A stretch of DNA of 5,666 nucleotides from a virus (Duplodnaviria > Heunggongvirae > Uroviricota > Caudoviricetes), in the IMG/VR virus record IMGVR_UViG_2778261420_000014, one strand, 5' to 3'. The first letter of the stretch is position 1. Every line of letters begins with the position of its first letter. This document shows positions 1 to 5,666 of the stretch, piece by piece. A program made the translations under genes and the position numbers. The notes under the pieces were generated by a model that was not told the DNA's origin, searched no databases, and saw only the letters and a list, made by a program, of their open reading frames with translations.

Positions 1-59
1 TGGCGGCCTCAGTCCGGAACAATTTGAAAACAAGAACCTCGCTTAGGCCTGTGTCCATA

Positions 60-365
60 TTACGTGGGTAGGATCAAATCAGACTTATCACGGTTACATA
101 GCCCCAGTGCTGATAGCAGACTTACATTCAAACTAAGACTATCCCCATAAGTCAGAGGATTGGGTATAACTGGCTGTGGAGTTTCAGCGAGCAGGTTCGC
201 CGGTAACGGTATCGTTGGAACCTGCACGTATACTGTCCGCGTACTTCCGCAACCGGTCAGCAGCGACATCAGGCACAGGGCGTGAAGCGCAATCATCTTC
301 CGCAACAGCCACTTTGATATCTTCCTGGGTTCTCTGTGACTCCAGTGCGATCTGCTGTTTTGCAT
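60..365 (-). CDS. Rz1: o-spanin (Rz1-type outer-membrane lipoprotein), overlapped with Rz in the +1 frame
   Basis: Open frame 60..527 (-) is out of frame with Rz. It contains a lipobox L-T-G-C preceded by a hydrophobic stretch (MIALHALCLMSLL) and followed by a Pro-rich region (VQVPTIPLP...PQPVIPNP), typical of Rz1. ATG at 365-363 has GGAGG 9 nt upstream; alternative ATG starts at 296 and 269 would give shorter signal peptides. The frame runs 124 nt past the Rz stop. Confidence 0.5.
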   Translation of the reverse strand: MQNSRSHWSHREPRKISKWLLRKMIALHALCLMSLLTGCGSTRTVYVQVPTIPLPANLLAETPQPVIPNPLTYGDSLSLNVSLLSALGLCNRDKSDLILPT

Positions 366-576
366 GCTGGTTAGCCTCCAAAACTGTATTGACGATTTGC
401 ATTGATTGCAGGACGTTATTGGTAATGGCAGTTGCTGATTCAGCATTTTGTACAGCCTCATCAGCACGTTTCTTTTCGTACTGATATTTGCTGTAGTAGT
501 AGTTGGCTGACCAGATGAAAGAACCAATGGCAGTAACGAAAAAAGCAGCGATAATCAGCTTATAACTCAACTTCAT
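184..576 (-). CDS. Rz: i-spanin (Rz-type inner-membrane spanin subunit)
   Basis: 130 aa with an N-terminal TM segment (LIIAAFFVTAIGSFIW), then a charged, helix-prone periplasmic domain with a Cys near the C-terminus. Start overlaps the 3' end of the endolysin gene; GGTGGGGTGG purine-rich SD-like sequence lies just upstream of the ATG. Position directly after the endolysin and the out-of-frame lipoprotein ORF match spanin architecture. Confidence 0.7.
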   Translation of the reverse strand: MKLSYKLIIAAFFVTAIGSFIWSANYYYSKYQYEKKRADEAVQNAESATAITNNVLQSMQIVNTVLEANQHAKQQIALESQRTQEDIKVAVAEDDCASRPVPDVAADRLRKYADSIRAGSNDTVTGEPAR

Positions 577-1036
577 TTACCACCCCACCAGCCTCTTTAA
601 ATCGGGCAATCAGGTCACCGATTTTATGTTCATACTGACCGTAACCTGCGCCCGGCAGTGAAGCCCAGATATTGCTGCAACGATCGATAGCCTGACGGAT
701 ATCACCGCGATCAATCATCGGTAAAGCGCCACGCTCTTTAATCTGCTGCAATGCCACTGCGTCCTGGCTTTTGGGGGAGAAGTCTTTCAGACCAAGCTGT
801 TTACGGTAAGCATCCCACCATCGGGAAAGAATCTGGTAGCGTCCAGCAGCCGTTGATTTAAGTTTTGGGTTTAGCGTGACAAGTTTGCGAGGGTGGTCGG
901 AGTAATCAGTGAAGAGTTCACCACCGACAATAACGTCATAACCGTGGTTACATGTCGGTTGCCGTCCATTATCCGTTCCTTCTGACCATGCCACCATATC
1001 GAGGAAAGCTTTACGCTGGGAATTTAGTACCTGCAT
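560..1036 (-). CDS. R: Endolysin, lambda R-type lytic transglycosylase
   Basis: 158 aa, the same length as lambda R, and matching it at most positions along the whole protein as I recall it (e.g. QRKAFLDM.AWSEGTDNGRQ, HGYDVIVGGELFTDYSDHPRKLVTLNPKLKST, RWWDAYRKQLGLKDFSPKSQDAVALQQIKERGALPMIDRGDIRQAIDRCSNIWASLPGAGYGQ), including the AWSEGT segment that holds the catalytic Glu. Strong SD AAGGAG about 8 nt upstream of ATG 1036. Confidence 0.95.
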   Translation of the reverse strand: MQVLNSQRKAFLDMVAWSEGTDNGRQPTCNHGYDVIVGGELFTDYSDHPRKLVTLNPKLKSTAAGRYQILSRWWDAYRKQLGLKDFSPKSQDAVALQQIKERGALPMIDRGDIRQAIDRCSNIWASLPGAGYGQYEHKIGDLIARFKEAGGVVNEVEL

Positions 1037-1039
1037 AAA

Positions 1040-1375
1040 TTACTCCTTAGAGCCACCAAACTTGTTACCGATTACTCTCATTGCAGCCCCACGAATTGCA
1101 TCGACCCCGATCAGCCCCACCCCACCACCAATGGCAACAGAAAGCGATTTAGGCCATCCGACATACTCAAGCGCGGATGCAAAGGTCAGCGTCAGAGCGC
1201 CACAGAGCAAAATTTCGAGTGTTTTTCGTTTCCAGCCGCCACCACCACCAAAATAGGCAATACGCAAACCAGCCATAACAATCGACATAATCACTGCGCC
1301 CAGCGGCGTATCTCCACGCCACCAGCTCTGGAACAACTCCAGCCAGTCCGGCCAGGTATTTGGGTTATGAGGCAT
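1040..1375 (-). CDS. Holin (three predicted TM segments, lambda S-like topology)
   Basis: Sits immediately upstream of the endolysin; its TAA stop is 3 nt before the R ATG. Three hydrophobic segments (LGAVIMSIVMAGLRIAYF; TLEILLCGALTLTFASALEYVGW; LSVAIGGGVGLIGVDAI) and a charged C-terminus. Called from ATG 1375, giving 111 aa; the ORF track's longer form begins at a GTG (1447) and would run through the terminator hairpin at 1429-1445, so it is judged an over-extension. Confidence 0.75.
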   Translation of the reverse strand: MPHNPNTWPDWLELFQSWWRGDTPLGAVIMSIVMAGLRIAYFGGGGGWKRKTLEILLCGALTLTFASALEYVGWPKSLSVAIGGGVGLIGVDAIRGAAMRVIGNKFGGSKE

Positions 1376-1417
1376 TTCGTCATCTCTCACCTCGCGATTA
1401 TTTGCGGGTGCTGTGTT

Positions 1418-1445
1418 GGAAATAAAAAGGCCACGCAACGTGGCC
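1418..1445 (-). terminator. Rho-independent terminator between methyltransferase and holin (minus strand)
   Basis: Perfect 7-bp GC-rich inverted repeat GGCCACG-caa-CGTGGCC (1429-1445). On the minus-strand transcript it is followed directly by UUUUUAUUUCC (complement of 1418-1428). It lies 8 nt after the methyltransferase stop and about 40 nt before the holin ATG. Confidence 0.65.
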
Positions 1446-1452
1446 ACCAGAA

Positions 1453-2505
1453 TTATTTCCCCACCAGTTCACTTACCTCTTTCACTGTCTGGTTAAACCG
1501 ATCTGACTCAAGCTCAACACCTAACGCCCGACGCCCCAGCTCCATTGCTGCTTTTATTGTGGAACCAGATCCCATAAAAAAATCAGCAACCAGATCACCT
1601 GGTCGACTACTGGCATTGATTATTTGCCGGAGCATATCCGCCGGTTTCTCACACGGATGTTTACCCGGGTAGAACTGAACGGGTTTATGCGTCCAGACAT
1701 CGGTATAAGGCACGGAGACTGATACGGAGAAATAGCGCCGGAGAGATTTAAACTCATCCAGCAATTCAGAATATTTGCGATTCAGTGAATCATAAGATGC
1801 CACCAGCTGGTGGTGTGGTTGTTCCAGTTGTTGTTTCTGAAACTTCTCTGCCGCTATACGGGAAAAAAGTGCCTGCAACTTCCGGTAGTCAGCCTCATTC
1901 GGCAACTGCCACTGACTGGCACCAAACCAGTGGGAAACCATGTTTTTCTTACCAGTGGCTTCGGCAATCTGTTTTGCCGTTATACCCAGTTCGGCACGTG
2001 CATCCCTGAAATACGATATCAGCGGTGCCATTATGTGCTGTTTGAGTTCCCTTTCTTTTTCCGCATAGCCGTCACTTTTGCCGCGATATGGCCCCTGGTA
2101 ATGTTCAGCAAACAGAACGCGCTCTGTGGCAGGAAAATATGCGCGCAGACTTTCTTTATTACACCCATTCCAACGTCCGGACGGCTTCGCCCAGATGATA
2201 TGGTTAAGCACGTTGAAACGTTCACGCATCATGATCTCAATATCAGATGCCAGGCGATGCCCACAGAACAGGTAAAGGCTTCCGGCAGGTTTCAACACCC
2301 GCCAGAACTGGGCCAGACAGTGGTCCAGCCACTTAAGGTAATCTTCGTCCCCTTTCCACTGATTGTCCCAACCGTTGGGTTTCACCTTGAAGTAAGGCGG
2401 ATCGGTAACAATCAGGTCAATGGAATCATCAGGCAGGGACTGAATAAAATGCAGGCAATCAGCGTTGATTAAATCAACACTGTTTATTTTTACAGTATTT
2501 TTCAT
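1453..2505 (-). CDS. Orphan DNA methyltransferase, beta-class N6-adenine/N4-cytosine amino-methyltransferase (PF01555-like)
   Basis: 350 aa. N-terminal DPPY motif (DLIVTDPPYF, motif IV) and C-terminal FxGxG SAM-binding motif (DFFMGSGST, motif I), with HPCEKP between; the IV-before-I order defines the beta group. No adjacent restriction endonuclease gene in the window. Confidence 0.9.
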   Translation of the reverse strand: MKNTVKINSVDLINADCLHFIQSLPDDSIDLIVTDPPYFKVKPNGWDNQWKGDEDYLKWLDHCLAQFWRVLKPAGSLYLFCGHRLASDIEIMMRERFNVLNHIIWAKPSGRWNGCNKESLRAYFPATERVLFAEHYQGPYRGKSDGYAEKERELKQHIMAPLISYFRDARAELGITAKQIAEATGKKNMVSHWFGASQWQLPNEADYRKLQALFSRIAAEKFQKQQLEQPHHQLVASYDSLNRKYSELLDEFKSLRRYFSVSVSVPYTDVWTHKPVQFYPGKHPCEKPADMLRQIINASSRPGDLVADFFMGSGSTIKAAMELGRRALGVELESDRFNQTVKEVSELVGK

Positions 2506-2654
2506 GGATCAGTAAGCGTAACTCTGGTAGGCTCACTCTGCTTTTGCGCTAAAGCAGTGGGCCGTGGTTCGCTTGTGACCAGTAGGCATGAGCGAATGGC
2601 TGGCAGGTGCTACCAACACCCACCAGCCGCCCATTTTCACAAATTAAAAGCCCT

Positions 2655-2873
2655 TCATTGCTGAAGGCGTCTGTAACAGCCGAACTGGTAATCTACCAGC
2701 CCCGCCATAACCAGCTGGGTCAGTATTAACTGACAGCGTTCGCGTGAAAGGTATGTGTTTTGTGCAATCTCCCCGACTGTTGCCGGTTCGATGCTTAATT
2801 CATTAAAAACAACTTTCGCCGTTTCTGTCATATCTTGCTGTTTTAGCATGTCTTTTTCCCTTCTGGTTAACAT
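2655..2873 (-). CDS. Small hypothetical protein with a possible helix-turn-helix / winged-helix segment
   Basis: 72-aa ORF; the segment TVGEIAQNTYLSRERCQLILTQLVMAGLV looks like an HTH recognition region. The likelier start is the internal ATG at 2849 (64 aa), which has AAGGGAAAAAG about 8 nt upstream; ATG 2873 lacks a clear SD. Function is inferred only. Confidence 0.5.
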   Translation of the reverse strand: MLTRREKDMLKQQDMTETAKVVFNELSIEPATVGEIAQNTYLSRERCQLILTQLVMAGLVDYQFGCYRRLQQ

Positions 2874-2971
2874 GACATACCAATAACTCTTGTCTAAAAA
2901 GCCAGCAAGATAAAAAGTCAGTATTCACGACCACCAGCGTGTTTACCGTACTGCTCTTGGTTTACAGGTAC

Positions 2972-2996
2972 AAAAAAACCGCTCGACGGCGGGTTT
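2972..2996 (-). terminator. Candidate intrinsic terminator upstream of the minus-strand gene block
   Basis: Minus-strand RNA would fold as AAAC-CCGC / GCGG-UUU (4 GC pairs plus 3 A-U pairs with one bulged residue, 6-nt loop) followed by a U7 tract (complement of A-run 2972-2978). The short GC stem keeps confidence modest. Confidence 0.35.
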
Positions 2997-3041
2997 AAGC
3001 TGTGTGGCGAAGTAACCACTCTTAACAGATTATGATAGTTT

Positions 3042-3079
3042 TTGCGTACGCGTTAGTAATTTATTATGCTCTTTACAAT
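3042..3079 (+). promoter_or_regulatory. Candidate sigma70-type promoter region for the plus-strand two-gene cassette
   Basis: AT-rich region directly upstream of the cassette. Weak hexamer candidates: TTGCGT (3042-3047), a 17-nt spacer, then TATGCT (3065-3070); alternative -10-like TATTAT (3062-3067) and TACAAT (3074-3079). None is close to consensus; exact placement is uncertain. Confidence 0.2.
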
Positions 3080-3094
3080 TGTTAGCTTAACCGC

Positions 3095-4261
3095 ATGGAA
3101 TTGACCAAAAAAATGAGCAAAGCAAGCATACGCCACGTAATCGTTCATGAGCTCTTAAAAGAATCTAATAAAGACTTCGATCACTCCAAACCATACAATC
3201 TTCGTGATACAGAACTAGATAAAACAAATGATATAGTAAAAAAATTAGTAGACGGTGTTATTGATTTGTATGGTTCAAAAGGGAACTCAGCGCATTATGG
3301 TGTTTTTATTAAAAATAAAACAAAGCAAGGCCCTATACCAGAACTATTTCATAAATACTCTTTAGTTCAACAATCTGTTTCAAGTGATTTCATTGAATTA
3401 TCGAAGGAAGTTATGAAACAAATGTATAAATCTGCTCAAGAGCAGATTTGGGCTTCTGGAGGATATGTTGTTTTTACTGATTATATTTTATCTGGTTTCC
3501 GTTATCTATTGGTTACAATGATCAAAAAAACTAATGGCGTAACTATTAGTGAAAATTTAGAGCCAGAGGAAATGATTCACTTAGAACTTGGTAATATTAA
3601 CCAAGCAGCAAAAATAAATTTCAGATATTATGAAGAATACCAAAAAGCAGATGACTTAAAAAAAACAGACTTAAGTTATCTAAGCTTTATAAGCAAAACT
3701 ACGGGACAGTCAGCGGCAGCATATTTTATAGCAGCATTAGGATGTGACAAGGGGATTGCTTCAGCAGGTGCAACCCGTAAGTTACCAGATGAAATAAGGC
3801 GTTTCTTTAAGAAAGAACCTCTTTTAAAAAATCAAGCAGAGTCATTTAGAAATGATGTTATCAAATACTTAGAAAAGCAATTTGACAACGAGCACTCTGC
3901 AAGGCTTTCTGATATCGAATCGCTTGCTTCAGGCCATATGTCCGATTTAAAAGAGGAAGAAAAAACAGAACTTGTTGATAAATTAATGAAACACCTCAAT
4001 AGTGAGGAAGTCAGAATCCCATCAGAGTTCGTAATCAATAAAAACTCCTTAGATAAAATCCGCAATGTGATATATAAAACCCCATCATTGAGCTTTCACT
4101 TCGACAAGGATTTACTCGGTGTCACAACTGATGCTAAAATATATTATGATGACGAAAACCAAAGCCTAACATTTAATAATTTGCCTGTTGAAGCATTAAC
4201 TAAGATAAGAAGAGCGTTGAAAGAAACTGATAACCCGAGTAATGAAGAAGATAAAGAATGA
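3095..4261 (+). CDS. NdpA/YejK-like nucleoid-associated protein homolog (PF04245-like), divergent
   Basis: 388-aa ORF. Segments parallel remembered E. coli YejK motifs along the whole length: [10 protein letters not shown] vs [44 protein letters not shown] vs [60 protein letters not shown] vs [24 protein letters not shown]; C-terminal [12 protein letters not shown]...LTFNNLP vs LTINFDAMLLG...LTIKGTPP. The true start may be ATG 3113 (MSKASIRHV...), which aligns with the YejK N-terminus. Stop overlaps the next start (ATGA at 4258-4261). Confidence 0.8.
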   Translation: [388 protein letters not shown]

Positions 4262-5484
4262 ATGATTTTAGTATAATAGTTAATCTGTATAGATTATCAA
4301 GCTATCCTCATTTTGACGGGGCTAAGTTTTCTGCGCGTATAGCTTATAATGCAGACGTAAAATCATTGTTCAAAAGAATTTTGAACCCTACTTTTCAAGC
4401 TGGTACAGCTGACGAAATAGAGGTGGATGGTCATTTAATTTATGATTATGAAGACTTTCCTGAAAAGGGAAATTTTCTTACATACTCGTTTAAAATTTCA
4501 CAAGGAAGTGCGAATCGTTTTTATAAAAATAAAAACGAGTTTGTAAAAATAAACACGCTCAAGAAAGGCATAATGCCAGAATATTTCTATATTATAGAGG
4601 ATGATTTCTATTCATTAGAAACACCAAAACCTTCTTATATCCAAAAAATTGAGGACATTTGTGAGCTAATCAATGCTCTTTCCATGCTTGCTCATTTCCA
4701 TGATATAAAAAAAGATAGCAAAGGTACATTTTATCGTTTAGTCTTTATTTTAAACTCAGAGTCTAAATCTTCTTCTGCTGTAATTGAAACAAATATTACA
4801 GAAGAAATTTTTAATGATAAAACAGTAAATACTCAGTTAGTTAAAACATTAGTAAGTAGTGAAGCTACTACTGATGCCCATCACATTGAAAAGATTAACA
4901 CTTTCAGAAACACAGTTATTGAGTATGTTAATAAAAATGGAAATTCCTTTGTCGAGTTAATTAACAAGTGGGATTTCATATGCGAACTTTATACGAACAA
5001 CTTAGCTGCTTATATGTCGGCATTTTCTTTTCATAAAGCAAGGAAAGAAGTTGTTGATGCTGAACTCGATTACTCAGAAAAACTGTCAAAAATAATTTCA
5101 GAAATTTCTAACAAAGCTCTTGCAATACCTATTTCACTAGCTGGTTCAATTGCTATTTTCAAATTAACAACAAAAACTGATTGGATTATTGCTTTAATTG
5201 GATTGATTATCACAGCAATAATAACATCTGCAATGATTGTGTCACAAAAAAAACAACTCGCTCGTATTTCACACTCTAAAGAAATACTTTTTGGACAATT
5301 AAGATATAGAATAAAGGATGACACCAGCGATCTTAAAGAGAGCTTAGAAGAGGCTATTAAAAAATTAAATGACAATGAGGATTTTTGTCATAAGGTGCTT
5401 GACAGTTTATTATCACTAGCATGGATGCCTACATTCATAGGCATCATCGGTATTTTATTTAAATTAATGCCAAATATTACTTGA
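4258..5484 (+). CDS. Hypothetical membrane protein: ~285-aa N-terminal domain of unknown function plus three C-terminal TM helices
   Basis: 408-aa ORF overlapping the upstream gene by ATGA. Predicted TM segments: ALAIPISLAGSIAIFKL (~aa 287-303), WIIALIGLIITAIITSAMIVS (~aa 309-329) and LLSLAWMPTFIGIIGILFKLM (~aa 383-404), with a charged ~50-aa linker between TM2 and TM3. No recognisable catalytic motif in the N-terminal domain. Confidence 0.8.
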   Translation: MNDFSIIVNLYRLSSYPHFDGAKFSARIAYNADVKSLFKRILNPTFQAGTADEIEVDGHLIYDYEDFPEKGNFLTYSFKISQGSANRFYKNKNEFVKINTLKKGIMPEYFYIIEDDFYSLETPKPSYIQKIEDICELINALSMLAHFHDIKKDSKGTFYRLVFILNSESKSSSAVIETNITEEIFNDKTVNTQLVKTLVSSEATTDAHHIEKINTFRNTVIEYVNKNGNSFVELINKWDFICELYTNNLAAYMSAFSFHKARKEVVDAELDYSEKLSKIISEISNKALAIPISLAGSIAIFKLTTKTDWIIALIGLIITAIITSAMIVSQKKQLARISHSKEILFGQLRYRIKDDTSDLKESLEEAIKKLNDNEDFCHKVLDSLLSLAWMPTFIGIIGILFKLMPNIT

Positions 5485-5666
5485 GCATGTACATAACCCC
5501 ATTAATGAAACCTAACGCAGTCTGCAATTGCTTCCGGATTGTTCCATCTGAGCATCTGCGTCTCTTCGCAATAGAACGCAGTGAAATACTGGATTTGCCC
5601 CTATATTTCCAGACACCTGTTATCACTTAACCCATTACTGGCCTGCTGCCGCAGATATTCCCGTGG

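Follow-up and report, generated by a model that had tools for sequence, protein, structure and literature searches.

Anti-phage systems built around YejK-like nucleoid-associated proteins have been described recently. DS-1 (working id D390; WP_000355468.1 and WP_000150292.1) was reported with DefensePredictor as a two-gene system that is validated in E. coli, is protective when cloned alone and newly implicates the YejK domain in defense (Science 2026, PMC13092281). PANGU systems are operons encoding a YejK-like nucleoid-associated protein and an effector, described in a 2026 preprint (bioRxiv 10.64898/2026.04.06.716658). According to this preprint, the nucleoid-associated protein of type II PANGU (Pag2A + Pag2B) is paired with a transmembrane protein, both genes are required and the response is abortive infection (Abi); T4 escapes the system by mutation of denA (endonuclease II), and the PANGU nucleoid-associated protein leaves the nucleoid upon infection and binds the N-terminal domain of the effector. 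Here we analyzed 5,666 nucleotides (nt) of a virus of the Caudoviricetes (IMG/VR record IMGVR_UViG_2778261420_000014; hereafter the window, meaning this whole stretch at its full length). We focused on an AT-rich segment (~3067-5484) with two open reading frames, ORF1 and ORF2, which lies between the antiterminator gene Q and the late promoter of a lambdoid (SfV/P27-like) prophage. With a probability of roughly 0.78, we interpret this segment as a DS-1-like two-gene anti-phage cassette with the architecture of type II PANGU, carried as accessory cargo in the slot between Q and the late promoter. Judged by sequence, the cassette would be a divergent member of this recently described and experimentally supported kind of defense.

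The coordinates of all features are given in Table 1, and E. coli YF-1, which matches positions 78-5589 of the window at 100%, served as a reference for their annotation. ORF1 is a full-length YejK/NA37 protein, and its NA37 domain match (PF04245) covers 349 residues. The protein also matches YejK in the Protein Data Bank (PDB; 9be2_A, E = 5e-15) and the YejK model of NCBIfam (E = 6.6e-39); since the latter match is under the yejK equivalog cutoff, ORF1 is read as a paralogue. An alternative in-frame ATG at 3095 gives the longest ORF (388 amino acids, aa), in which the NA37 domain begins at residue 16 and Cys pairs are absent, and the start at 3113 agrees with the homologues, RefSeq and the YF-1 annotation. 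The sequence just 5' of the ATG at 3113 (ATGGAnnnGAAC-AAAAAATG) is kept in several genera. The start of ORF2 overlaps the stop of ORF1 by 4 nt (ATGA at 4258-4261). Hydropathy analysis of ORF2 indicates three hydrophobic segments toward the C-terminus (residues ~287-303, 307-330 and 381-405), and the AlphaFold2 (AF2) model, with a predicted local distance difference test score (pLDDT) of 85, presents an alpha/beta domain at residues 1-200 followed by long helices, the hydrophobic segments being helical. The N-terminal domain (residues 1-285) has an isoelectric point (pI) of 5.5 and the net charge of the whole protein is -5, which is only mildly acidic. ORF2 falls in phrog_5023 but no Pfam domain was found in it, and searching PDB sequences with the profile of its family yielded YbgF matches only, at chance level. 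This gene has already been flagged as a predicted defense gene in a published table: Table S10 of DefensePredictor lists WP_016159279.1 at 4258..5484(+) of NZ_NORX01000078.1, which are exactly the protein and the coordinates of ORF2, such that the window almost certainly corresponds to this contig, and this machine-learning approach attributed to it a log-odds score of 13.05 as a defense gene (PMC13092281).

We then compared the two proteins to the pair of DS-1, which is represented in NCBIfam by two equivalog models (NF053868 and NF053869). ORF1 scored 99.1 bits against DS1_1_antiphage (E = 2.6e-28) and ORF2 scored 100 bits against DS1_2_antiphage. BLASTP aligned them to DS-1A and DS-1B with 24% and 22% identity, respectively (E = 8e-11 each), and hhalign matched the family profile of ORF2 to DS-1B with 96.7% probability over residues 88-318. 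These alignments indicate that both proteins of the window are homologous to the partners of DS-1 but are not their equivalogs. The resemblance extends to the organization of the loci. The order of the genes is the same at the DS-1 locus (L034), with an NA37 gene followed by a gene for a ~400-aa protein with C-terminal hydrophobic helices. DS-1 likewise adjoins a convergent Q of the same type with which its stop codon overlaps, it presents the same layout of palindrome and promoter upstream, and it is AT-rich (~35% GC). The locus is also similar to type II PANGU, which shares a YejK-like core in the nucleoid-associated protein, a bicistronic arrangement with an intergenic distance under 40 bp (the genes of the window overlap by ATGA), a partner with a C-terminal transmembrane domain and its presence in E. 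coli. The nucleoid-bound sensor, membrane effector and abortive infection proposed for type II PANGU would fit the anatomy of the window.

The cassette stands out by its composition. The first-pass annotation had reported an abrupt drop and recovery of GC-content with cargo genes encoded opposite to the late genes, and we confirmed both: the GC-content is 48.3% at 1-3070, 32.1% at 3071-5484 and 46.7% at 5485-5666, and the two island genes are on the plus strand while the lysis genes, the methylase gene and Q are all on the minus strand. The discontinuity is genuine and well past chance (chi-square = 144; P = 3.6e-33; AT-rich island compared with the flanks outside insertion sequences). In sliding windows, the GC fraction is ~0.45-0.53 outside the island and 0.27-0.39 inside, from ~3000 to ~5500, and a maximum-likelihood fit with two change points placed the breaks at ~3010 and ~5515. 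The GC-content at third codon positions is 0.27 and 0.24 for the two island genes and 0.45-0.52 for the genes on either side. Homology defined the edges more precisely than composition. Phages sharing the left flank lose similarity to the window at 2995-3070, and the left edge stands at ~3067-3070, where similarity to phages with other or no cargo ends. The right edge stands at 5476-5484, where the stop codon of ORF2 (TGA, 5482-5484) overlaps the stop codon of Q (TAA, 5477-5479, minus strand). A target-site duplication, which had been suggested as a mark to look for at the junctions, was searched for without success: neither a duplication nor direct or inverted terminal repeats were found at the 3067 and 5484 edges, and no recombinase was found among the ORFs of the window. 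Cargo is presumably exchanged through recombination in the conserved flanks.

It had also been noted that no long ORF follows the cassette and that the Q-type activator is not at its expected place. This is incorrect, as Q directly abuts the cassette. The reading frame at 5477-5626 on the minus strand matches the Pfam family Phage_antitermQ (profile positions 78-113 of 118), and YF-1 has an intact Q gene of 114 aa, spanning the equivalent of 5477-5821, whose 3' end is matched by positions 5477-5589 with 100% identity. The ORF looks short because the last 77 bases of the window (5590-5666) are the terminus of an insertion sequence (IS) that interrupts Q. Q and ORF2 are convergent and their ends overlap by 8 nt. 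One lesson for annotation is that an apparently missing Q can come from a contig that ends in an IS element.

The cassette occupies a slot located between the stop codon of Q and the probable Q-binding palindrome beside the late promoter. In related phages, this slot presents a variety of contents. It is empty in SfV, which has an unrelated Q type and no palindrome block, and in 1720a-02, where the stop codon of Q is ~20 nt from the palindrome. It contains genes of 313 and 147 aa in cdtI, a 308-aa gene in mEp460_4F5, a KAP NTPase in CUPF06 (PADLOC PDC-S20, 9e-177), a 1050-aa metallophosphoesterase in 6409 (PDC-S60, 2.5e-97; DS8-like (DS-8-like), 2.8e-50) and L22 in phiP27, which is PD-Lambda-1-like (2e-89) and lies on the late strand. 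Overall, seven different cargos or empty sites were found at the same junction. Three of the cargos match defense models, namely PD-Lambda-1, which is validated, and the PADLOC candidates PDC-S20 and PDC-S60; three further cassettes in the slot are unannotated. When the cassette of the window is counted, there are eight cargos, all but one of which face away from the late promoter. The first-pass annotation had assigned the segment to a known cargo hotspot near the lysis cassette: the hotspot is genuine, with other defense-like cargo or none in the relatives, but its location is not the classical one, as it lies upstream of the late promoter. A chimeric query combining Q and the late promoter revealed no empty site with the Q allele of the window in 5426 complete E. 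coli genomes, and the junctions were therefore defined from phages with other Q alleles.

We aligned the control region of 12 loci from nine genera and counted promoter spacings across 40 distinct regions. On the minus strand, the motif TAnnnT (3032-3027) is followed by G-n-TAAGAG and, ~30 nt further on, by a terminator (stem at 2990-2978) that is kept across loci and coincides with a rho-independent terminator annotated at the equivalent place in SfV. T3032, A3031, T3027 and the block CTCTTAnCA (3019-3027) are invariant in the 12 loci, and the TAnnnT pattern is found in all 40 regions. This is the arrangement of a late promoter under Q control with its early terminator, and several features of a Q-dependent late module are present: Q upstream, the candidate promoter, the early terminator and then the holin, endolysin and spanin genes. 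A small hairpin (3006-3021; GTGG-TTACTTCG-CCAC on the minus strand) is found in the predicted initial transcribed region, between the late promoter and the terminator, and is kept in most E. coli-type loci; it may belong to a Q-loading or pause signal.

Upstream of the late promoter, the 16-mer TTTTGCGTACGCGTTA contains a palindrome, GCGTACGC, and is common to both divergent promoters. We tracked the variants of this palindrome at positions 3040-3055 of the window and at the equivalent positions of other loci (L002, L005, L006 and L009). Among E. coli loci, the palindrome varies with the type of Q: it is GCGTACGC where Q is at least 85% identical to the Q of YF-1, GCGGACCGC where the identity is ~54% and GGAATTCC in phiP27, where it is 45%. 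The palindrome is independent of the cargo, since four different cargos are found with GCGTACGC. We also considered that it could be the operator of the small winged helix-turn-helix (wHTH) protein encoded past the late terminator; this was rejected, as the wHTH protein is identical in two loci with differing palindromes while Q differs between those loci. Because the palindrome follows the type of Q and neither the cargo nor the wHTH ORF, it is probably an allele-specific binding element of PF06530-type Q proteins.

The candidate promoter of the cassette is back-to-back with the late promoter; its -35 falls within the conserved palindrome, and the edge of the cargo contains the -10. The TAnnnT motif is found exactly 17 nt past TTGCG[T/G] in 34 of the 40 regions, and any other spacing in at most five of them. 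The -10 hexamer differs by cargo: it is TATGCT in the window (3065-3070), TGaTAGAAT in DS-1 and TATAAT for the cargo of 6409. The comparative evidence for this putative cargo promoter is good. A probable sigma-70 promoter of its own, running away from the late promoter, leads us to expect that the cassette is expressed in the lysogen independently of Q. The earlier suggestion that the cargo does not depend on late-gene antitermination is thus plausible, given this conserved promoter-like element.

Drawing on homology and on the PANGU preprint (bioRxiv 10.64898/2026.04.06.716658), we propose a mechanism for the cassette. In the lysogen, the cassette would be expressed from the sigma-70 promoter described above, and the YejK-like protein would coat the nucleoid. 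The degradation of host DNA by an infecting phage would then release this protein, which would bind to the membrane protein at its N-terminal domain and activate it, and the infection would be aborted. The composition, gene content, homology and synteny of the cassette, the polymorphism of the hotspot and the conservation of promoter and palindrome were observed directly, whereas we infer the defense phenotype of this subfamily, how it senses infection and acts on it, and that it is expressed in the lysogen.

Several observations weigh against the interpretation of the segment as a DS-1-like defense cassette. Neither protein reached the equivalog level for DS-1, the scores being approximately one third of the cutoffs of DS1_1_antiphage (99 vs. 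330 bits) and DS1_2_antiphage (100 vs. 315 bits). The proteins are just 22-25% identical to those of DS-1, and DS-1A, which begins with MDITCLECG...CDKCG and whose NA37 domain starts at residue 42, carries a zinc ribbon (CxxC...CxxC) at its N-terminus, which is absent from the window protein. DS-1 is experimentally validated, whereas the subfamily of the window is predicted only. PADLOC v2, a library older than the system, gave no match for either island protein. The likeness to type II PANGU is one of architecture, taken from the published description, and the N-terminal domain of Pag2B is a strongly acidic DNA mimic whereas that of ORF2 is only mildly acidic, such that the DNA-mimic feature is not evident. 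The fold search for ORF2 returned generic helical bundles only. A simple consensus promoter scan of 2500-3300 did not call the cassette promoter and the number of promoter-like sites in YF-1 equals chance; the promoter call is therefore based on comparative conservation. Finally, H-NS may silence such AT-rich DNA.

We further examined the distribution of the cassette. The homologues of ORF2 form 59 clusters, and all the organism-named matches are from Enterobacterales. We examined loci from Pectobacterium, Edwardsiella, Klebsiella phage P7641, Shigella, Ewingella, Pantoea, Xenorhabdus, Providencia and Proteus: NA37, ORF2 and a convergent Q of the same type were found in that order in 15 of 16 loci, the exception being a decayed symbiont locus. 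In the viral contigs of IMG/VR, the cassette adjoins the same Q type in 48 of 48 cases for the family of the window and in 34 of 35 cases for DS-1 (82/83 together). Across loci, identity to the proteins of the window ranges from 42% to 82% for NA37, from 33% to 65% for ORF2 and from 54% to 87% for Q. The GC-content of the cassette is 29-37% whatever the GC-content of the flanks (37-58%), which indicates that its AT-richness is intrinsic and maintained. These comparisons show that the cassette is an ancient mobile accessory module in this lineage of phages, which has long been associated with this Q type and has diverged faster than Q. In E. coli, the cassette was found with the same flanks in 30 of the 5426 complete genomes, always chromosomal, in single copy and with at least 99.5% identity. 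Two diverged copies were observed in Shigella flexneri SFBU0723 (CP182557.1; L016 and L019), each beside its own Q and with ORF2 proteins 53% and 44% identical to that of the window; the second copy presents only a partial NA37 match (173 aa) and may be decaying. In E. coli 268.2 (NZ_CP059947.1, 1161494-1166458; H25, H90), the cassette is in two pieces with an IS1 family transposase annotated under the match, which points to an insertion of IS1 within or next to the cassette and thus to inactivation on occasion. The Edwardsiella piscicida prophage with the NA37 cassette (L013) also encodes a BrnT/BrnA toxin-antitoxin pair on the opposite strand of its early region (10792-11308), a further accessory module in divergent orientation.

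These patterns can be set against the possibility that the segment is a newly acquired island, inserted from an AT-rich donor into an otherwise intact late-control region. The sharp GC discontinuity, the presence of the cassette in just 30 of 5426 genomes and the polymorphism of the site for cargo would all be expected from such an event. However, orthologous cassettes are found at the same junction and with the same Q type across genera with 33-76% protein identity, their low GC-content does not depend on their flanks, neither target-site duplication nor terminal repeats were found, and the 5426 genomes contain no empty site with this Q allele. The cross-genus synteny refutes a recent insertion, which we consider very improbable. 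The first-pass view of an abruptly acquired island thus stands with regard to the sharp AT-rich cargo segment but not with regard to the recent acquisition that it implied, given the synteny of the cassette and Q across about ten genera. The compositional break could in principle be an artefact of misjoined contigs, as both ends of the window consist of exactly 77 bases of IS repeat, a typical break of assembly graphs. This explanation has practically no chance of being correct: positions 78-5589 are collinear with the complete chromosome of YF-1 at 100% identity and with others at 97-99%, and the recurrence of the cassette with both flanks in 30 complete genomes refutes it.

The cassette might also serve a function other than defense. 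Plasmid-borne NdpA/H-NS-like proteins structure or silence DNA. By analogy, the NA37 protein could structure or silence the DNA of the prophage or of the host, with the membrane protein acting in superinfection exclusion or in the timing of lysis. Such a role would be compatible with the NA37 fold, which is that of the housekeeping YejK, with ORF2 having no recognizable enzymatic domain, and with the tight linkage to Q, which could reflect a function in the phage's own regulation. Yet both partners are homologous to the DS-1 pair, which is protective in E. coli when cloned alone, and type II PANGU needs both of its genes for defense. The slot otherwise contains genes matching defense-system models, and the cassette is dispensable for the phage because many phages with the same Q type do not possess it. 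We therefore regard a function unrelated to defense as unlikely and retain the DS-1-like anti-phage cassette as the best explanation.

The junction between the cassette and Q raises a further question about regulation. From the stop codon of the cargo to that of Q, the distance is -8 nt in the window and YF-1 (5477-5484), +5 nt in Pectobacterium (L011, 7224-7230), -4 nt in Edwardsiella (L013, 7218-7221) and in Klebsiella phage P7641 (L015, 6179-6182), and -21 nt at the DS-1 locus (L034, 6195-6215). No terminator was found around the ORF2/Q junction in YF-1, and other cargos in the slot have a GC hairpin, either immediately between the cargo and Q or, where the spacer is longer, close to one of its ends. 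With overlapping stop codons and no terminator, the Q and cassette transcripts must overlap in antisense. One may speculate that the cassette is wired into the Q switch and not merely parked beside it, as a built-in self-immunity switch for a prophage Abi system; we hold this as a doubtful, tentative idea. It would draw on the position of the -35 within a palindrome specific to the Q type and on the terminator-less overlap with the stop codon of Q in both deeply diverged families. Upon induction, the binding of Q and/or read-through from Q into the cassette in antisense would shut off Abi, which might otherwise be triggered while the prophage itself goes through lytic growth. In the lysogen, transcription of the cassette antisense into Q would damp leaky Q expression.

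The remainder of the window corresponds to the late region of the prophage (Table 1). The lysis region of SfV presents 93.6% nucleotide identity to its counterpart in the window. The orphan methyltransferase, which has no nuclease partner and whose gene is the first large one in the late operon, is kept in SfV, cdtI, P27 and Shiga toxin (Stx) phages and presumably represents a late-expressed anti-restriction function. The small winged-helix ORF is the first gene past the late terminator. Both ends of the window are exactly 77 bases of multicopy IS sequence, and the contig broke in these repeats. At the left end, the IS3 sequence cuts the prophage just past the spanin genes, and homology to YF-1 begins at base 78. 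At the right end, the contig likewise ends in the IS that interrupts Q, and the match starts at the end of the element in strain 300709; we take this IS3-family element to resemble IS2. The prophage is probably defective, with Q cut by one IS and the far end of the lysis region cut by IS3, and its defense cassette is intact.

Table 1. Features of the 5,666-nt window, with coordinates counted from its first base
Feature	Coordinates	Strand	Evidence
IS3 terminus	1..77	not assigned	100% match to thousands of copies annotated 'IS3-like element IS3 family transposase'
Rz/i-spanin-like lysis gene (DUF2570)	184..576	-	Pfam PF10828, E 1.3e-5; DUF2570 in YF-1
Endolysin (glycoside hydrolase family 104 / lambda R-like)	560..1036	-	ORF; YF-1 annotation
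Lambda-family holin	1040..1447	-	Pfam PF05106, E 4.6e-27; YF-1 annotated start gives 1040-1375
Orphan N6/N4 DNA methyltransferase, late operon	1453..2505	-	Pfam PF01555, E 1.9e-42; PADLOC MTase_II, E 4.4e-152
Small winged-helix ORF (phrog_331)	2655..2873	-	PHROGs E 1.4e-34; weak TrmB/MarR matches; YF-1 annotated start gives 2655-2849
Intrinsic terminator, promoter-proximal, tR'-like	2971..2990	-	Stem 2990-2978 then T-run; terminator scan
Candidate late promoter, -10 TAATCT (3032-3027), then invariant block G-n-TAAGAG	3019..3032	-	Comparative alignment
16-mer with palindrome	3040..3055	not assigned	Invariant in 12 loci
Candidate cassette promoter, -35 TTGCGT (3042-3047), 17-nt spacer, -10 TATGCT (3065-3070)	3042..3070	+	Conservation
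ORF1, YejK/NA37-family nucleoid-associated protein, 382 aa, predicted sensor	3113..4261	+	PF04245, E 2.3e-50
ORF2, 408-aa partner, predicted membrane effector	4258..5484	+	NCBIfam DS1_2_antiphage, E 1.5e-28
Q 3' end, last ~37 codons	5477..5589	-	Pfam PF06530, E 5e-7; identical to YF-1 Q
IS3-family (IS2-like) terminus	5590..5666	not assigned	100% match, up to 39 copies per genome annotated 'IS3 family transposase'

Our results add a divergent, predicted subfamily to the defenses based on nucleoid-associated proteins (DS-1 and PANGU), which appear to sense damage to the host chromosome and not a phage molecule. They also define a precise cargo slot in the lambdoid prophages of many Enterobacterales, whose three unannotated cassettes could be mined, and all the cargos seem to make use of one common conserved -35 and palindrome. 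Should the convergent overlap with Q prove regulatory, this would help to explain how prophages prevent suicide-type defenses from killing their own lytic cycle. Nothing specific to a cargo hotspot between Q and the late promoter was found in the literature searched, and we found no prior description of a slot between Q and its probable binding site, of the shared promoter architecture or of the terminator-less overlap with Q, which we consider to be of moderate interest.

The slot can be compared with other arrangements of accessory genes in temperate phages. The classical position of lambdoid 'moron' genes is between pR'/tR' and the lysis genes, as for stx in 933W and P27. The slot of the window resembles it in placing accessory cargo beside the lambdoid late control region, and phiP27 carries stx at the classical position. 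Classical morons lie past the late promoter, are encoded on the late strand and depend on Q, whereas the slot described here is upstream of the late promoter and its cargos are mostly on the opposite strand and presumably independent of Q. Type II PANGU differs by its reported context, as the preprint searched near defense islands and mentions neither prophages nor a location adjacent to Q. A hotspot with a fixed position between conserved genes and interchangeable defense systems was described in temperate phages in 2022 (PMC9122126). Our locus shares this fixed slot, its conserved flanking genes and its swappable defense systems but belongs to another phage family and another slot, which separates the regulator Q from its probable DNA target, and its cargo promoter appears to share a conserved control element. 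Finally, the Tai/Ati 'noncontiguous operon' of phi80 involves a constitutive defense gene opposite to the late strand, the level of which decreases once late transcription is under way through Q (He et al. 2024, PMC11364771). Although it is located upstream of the packaging genes and encodes unrelated proteins, this operon provides a precedent for the antisense control of prophage defenses.

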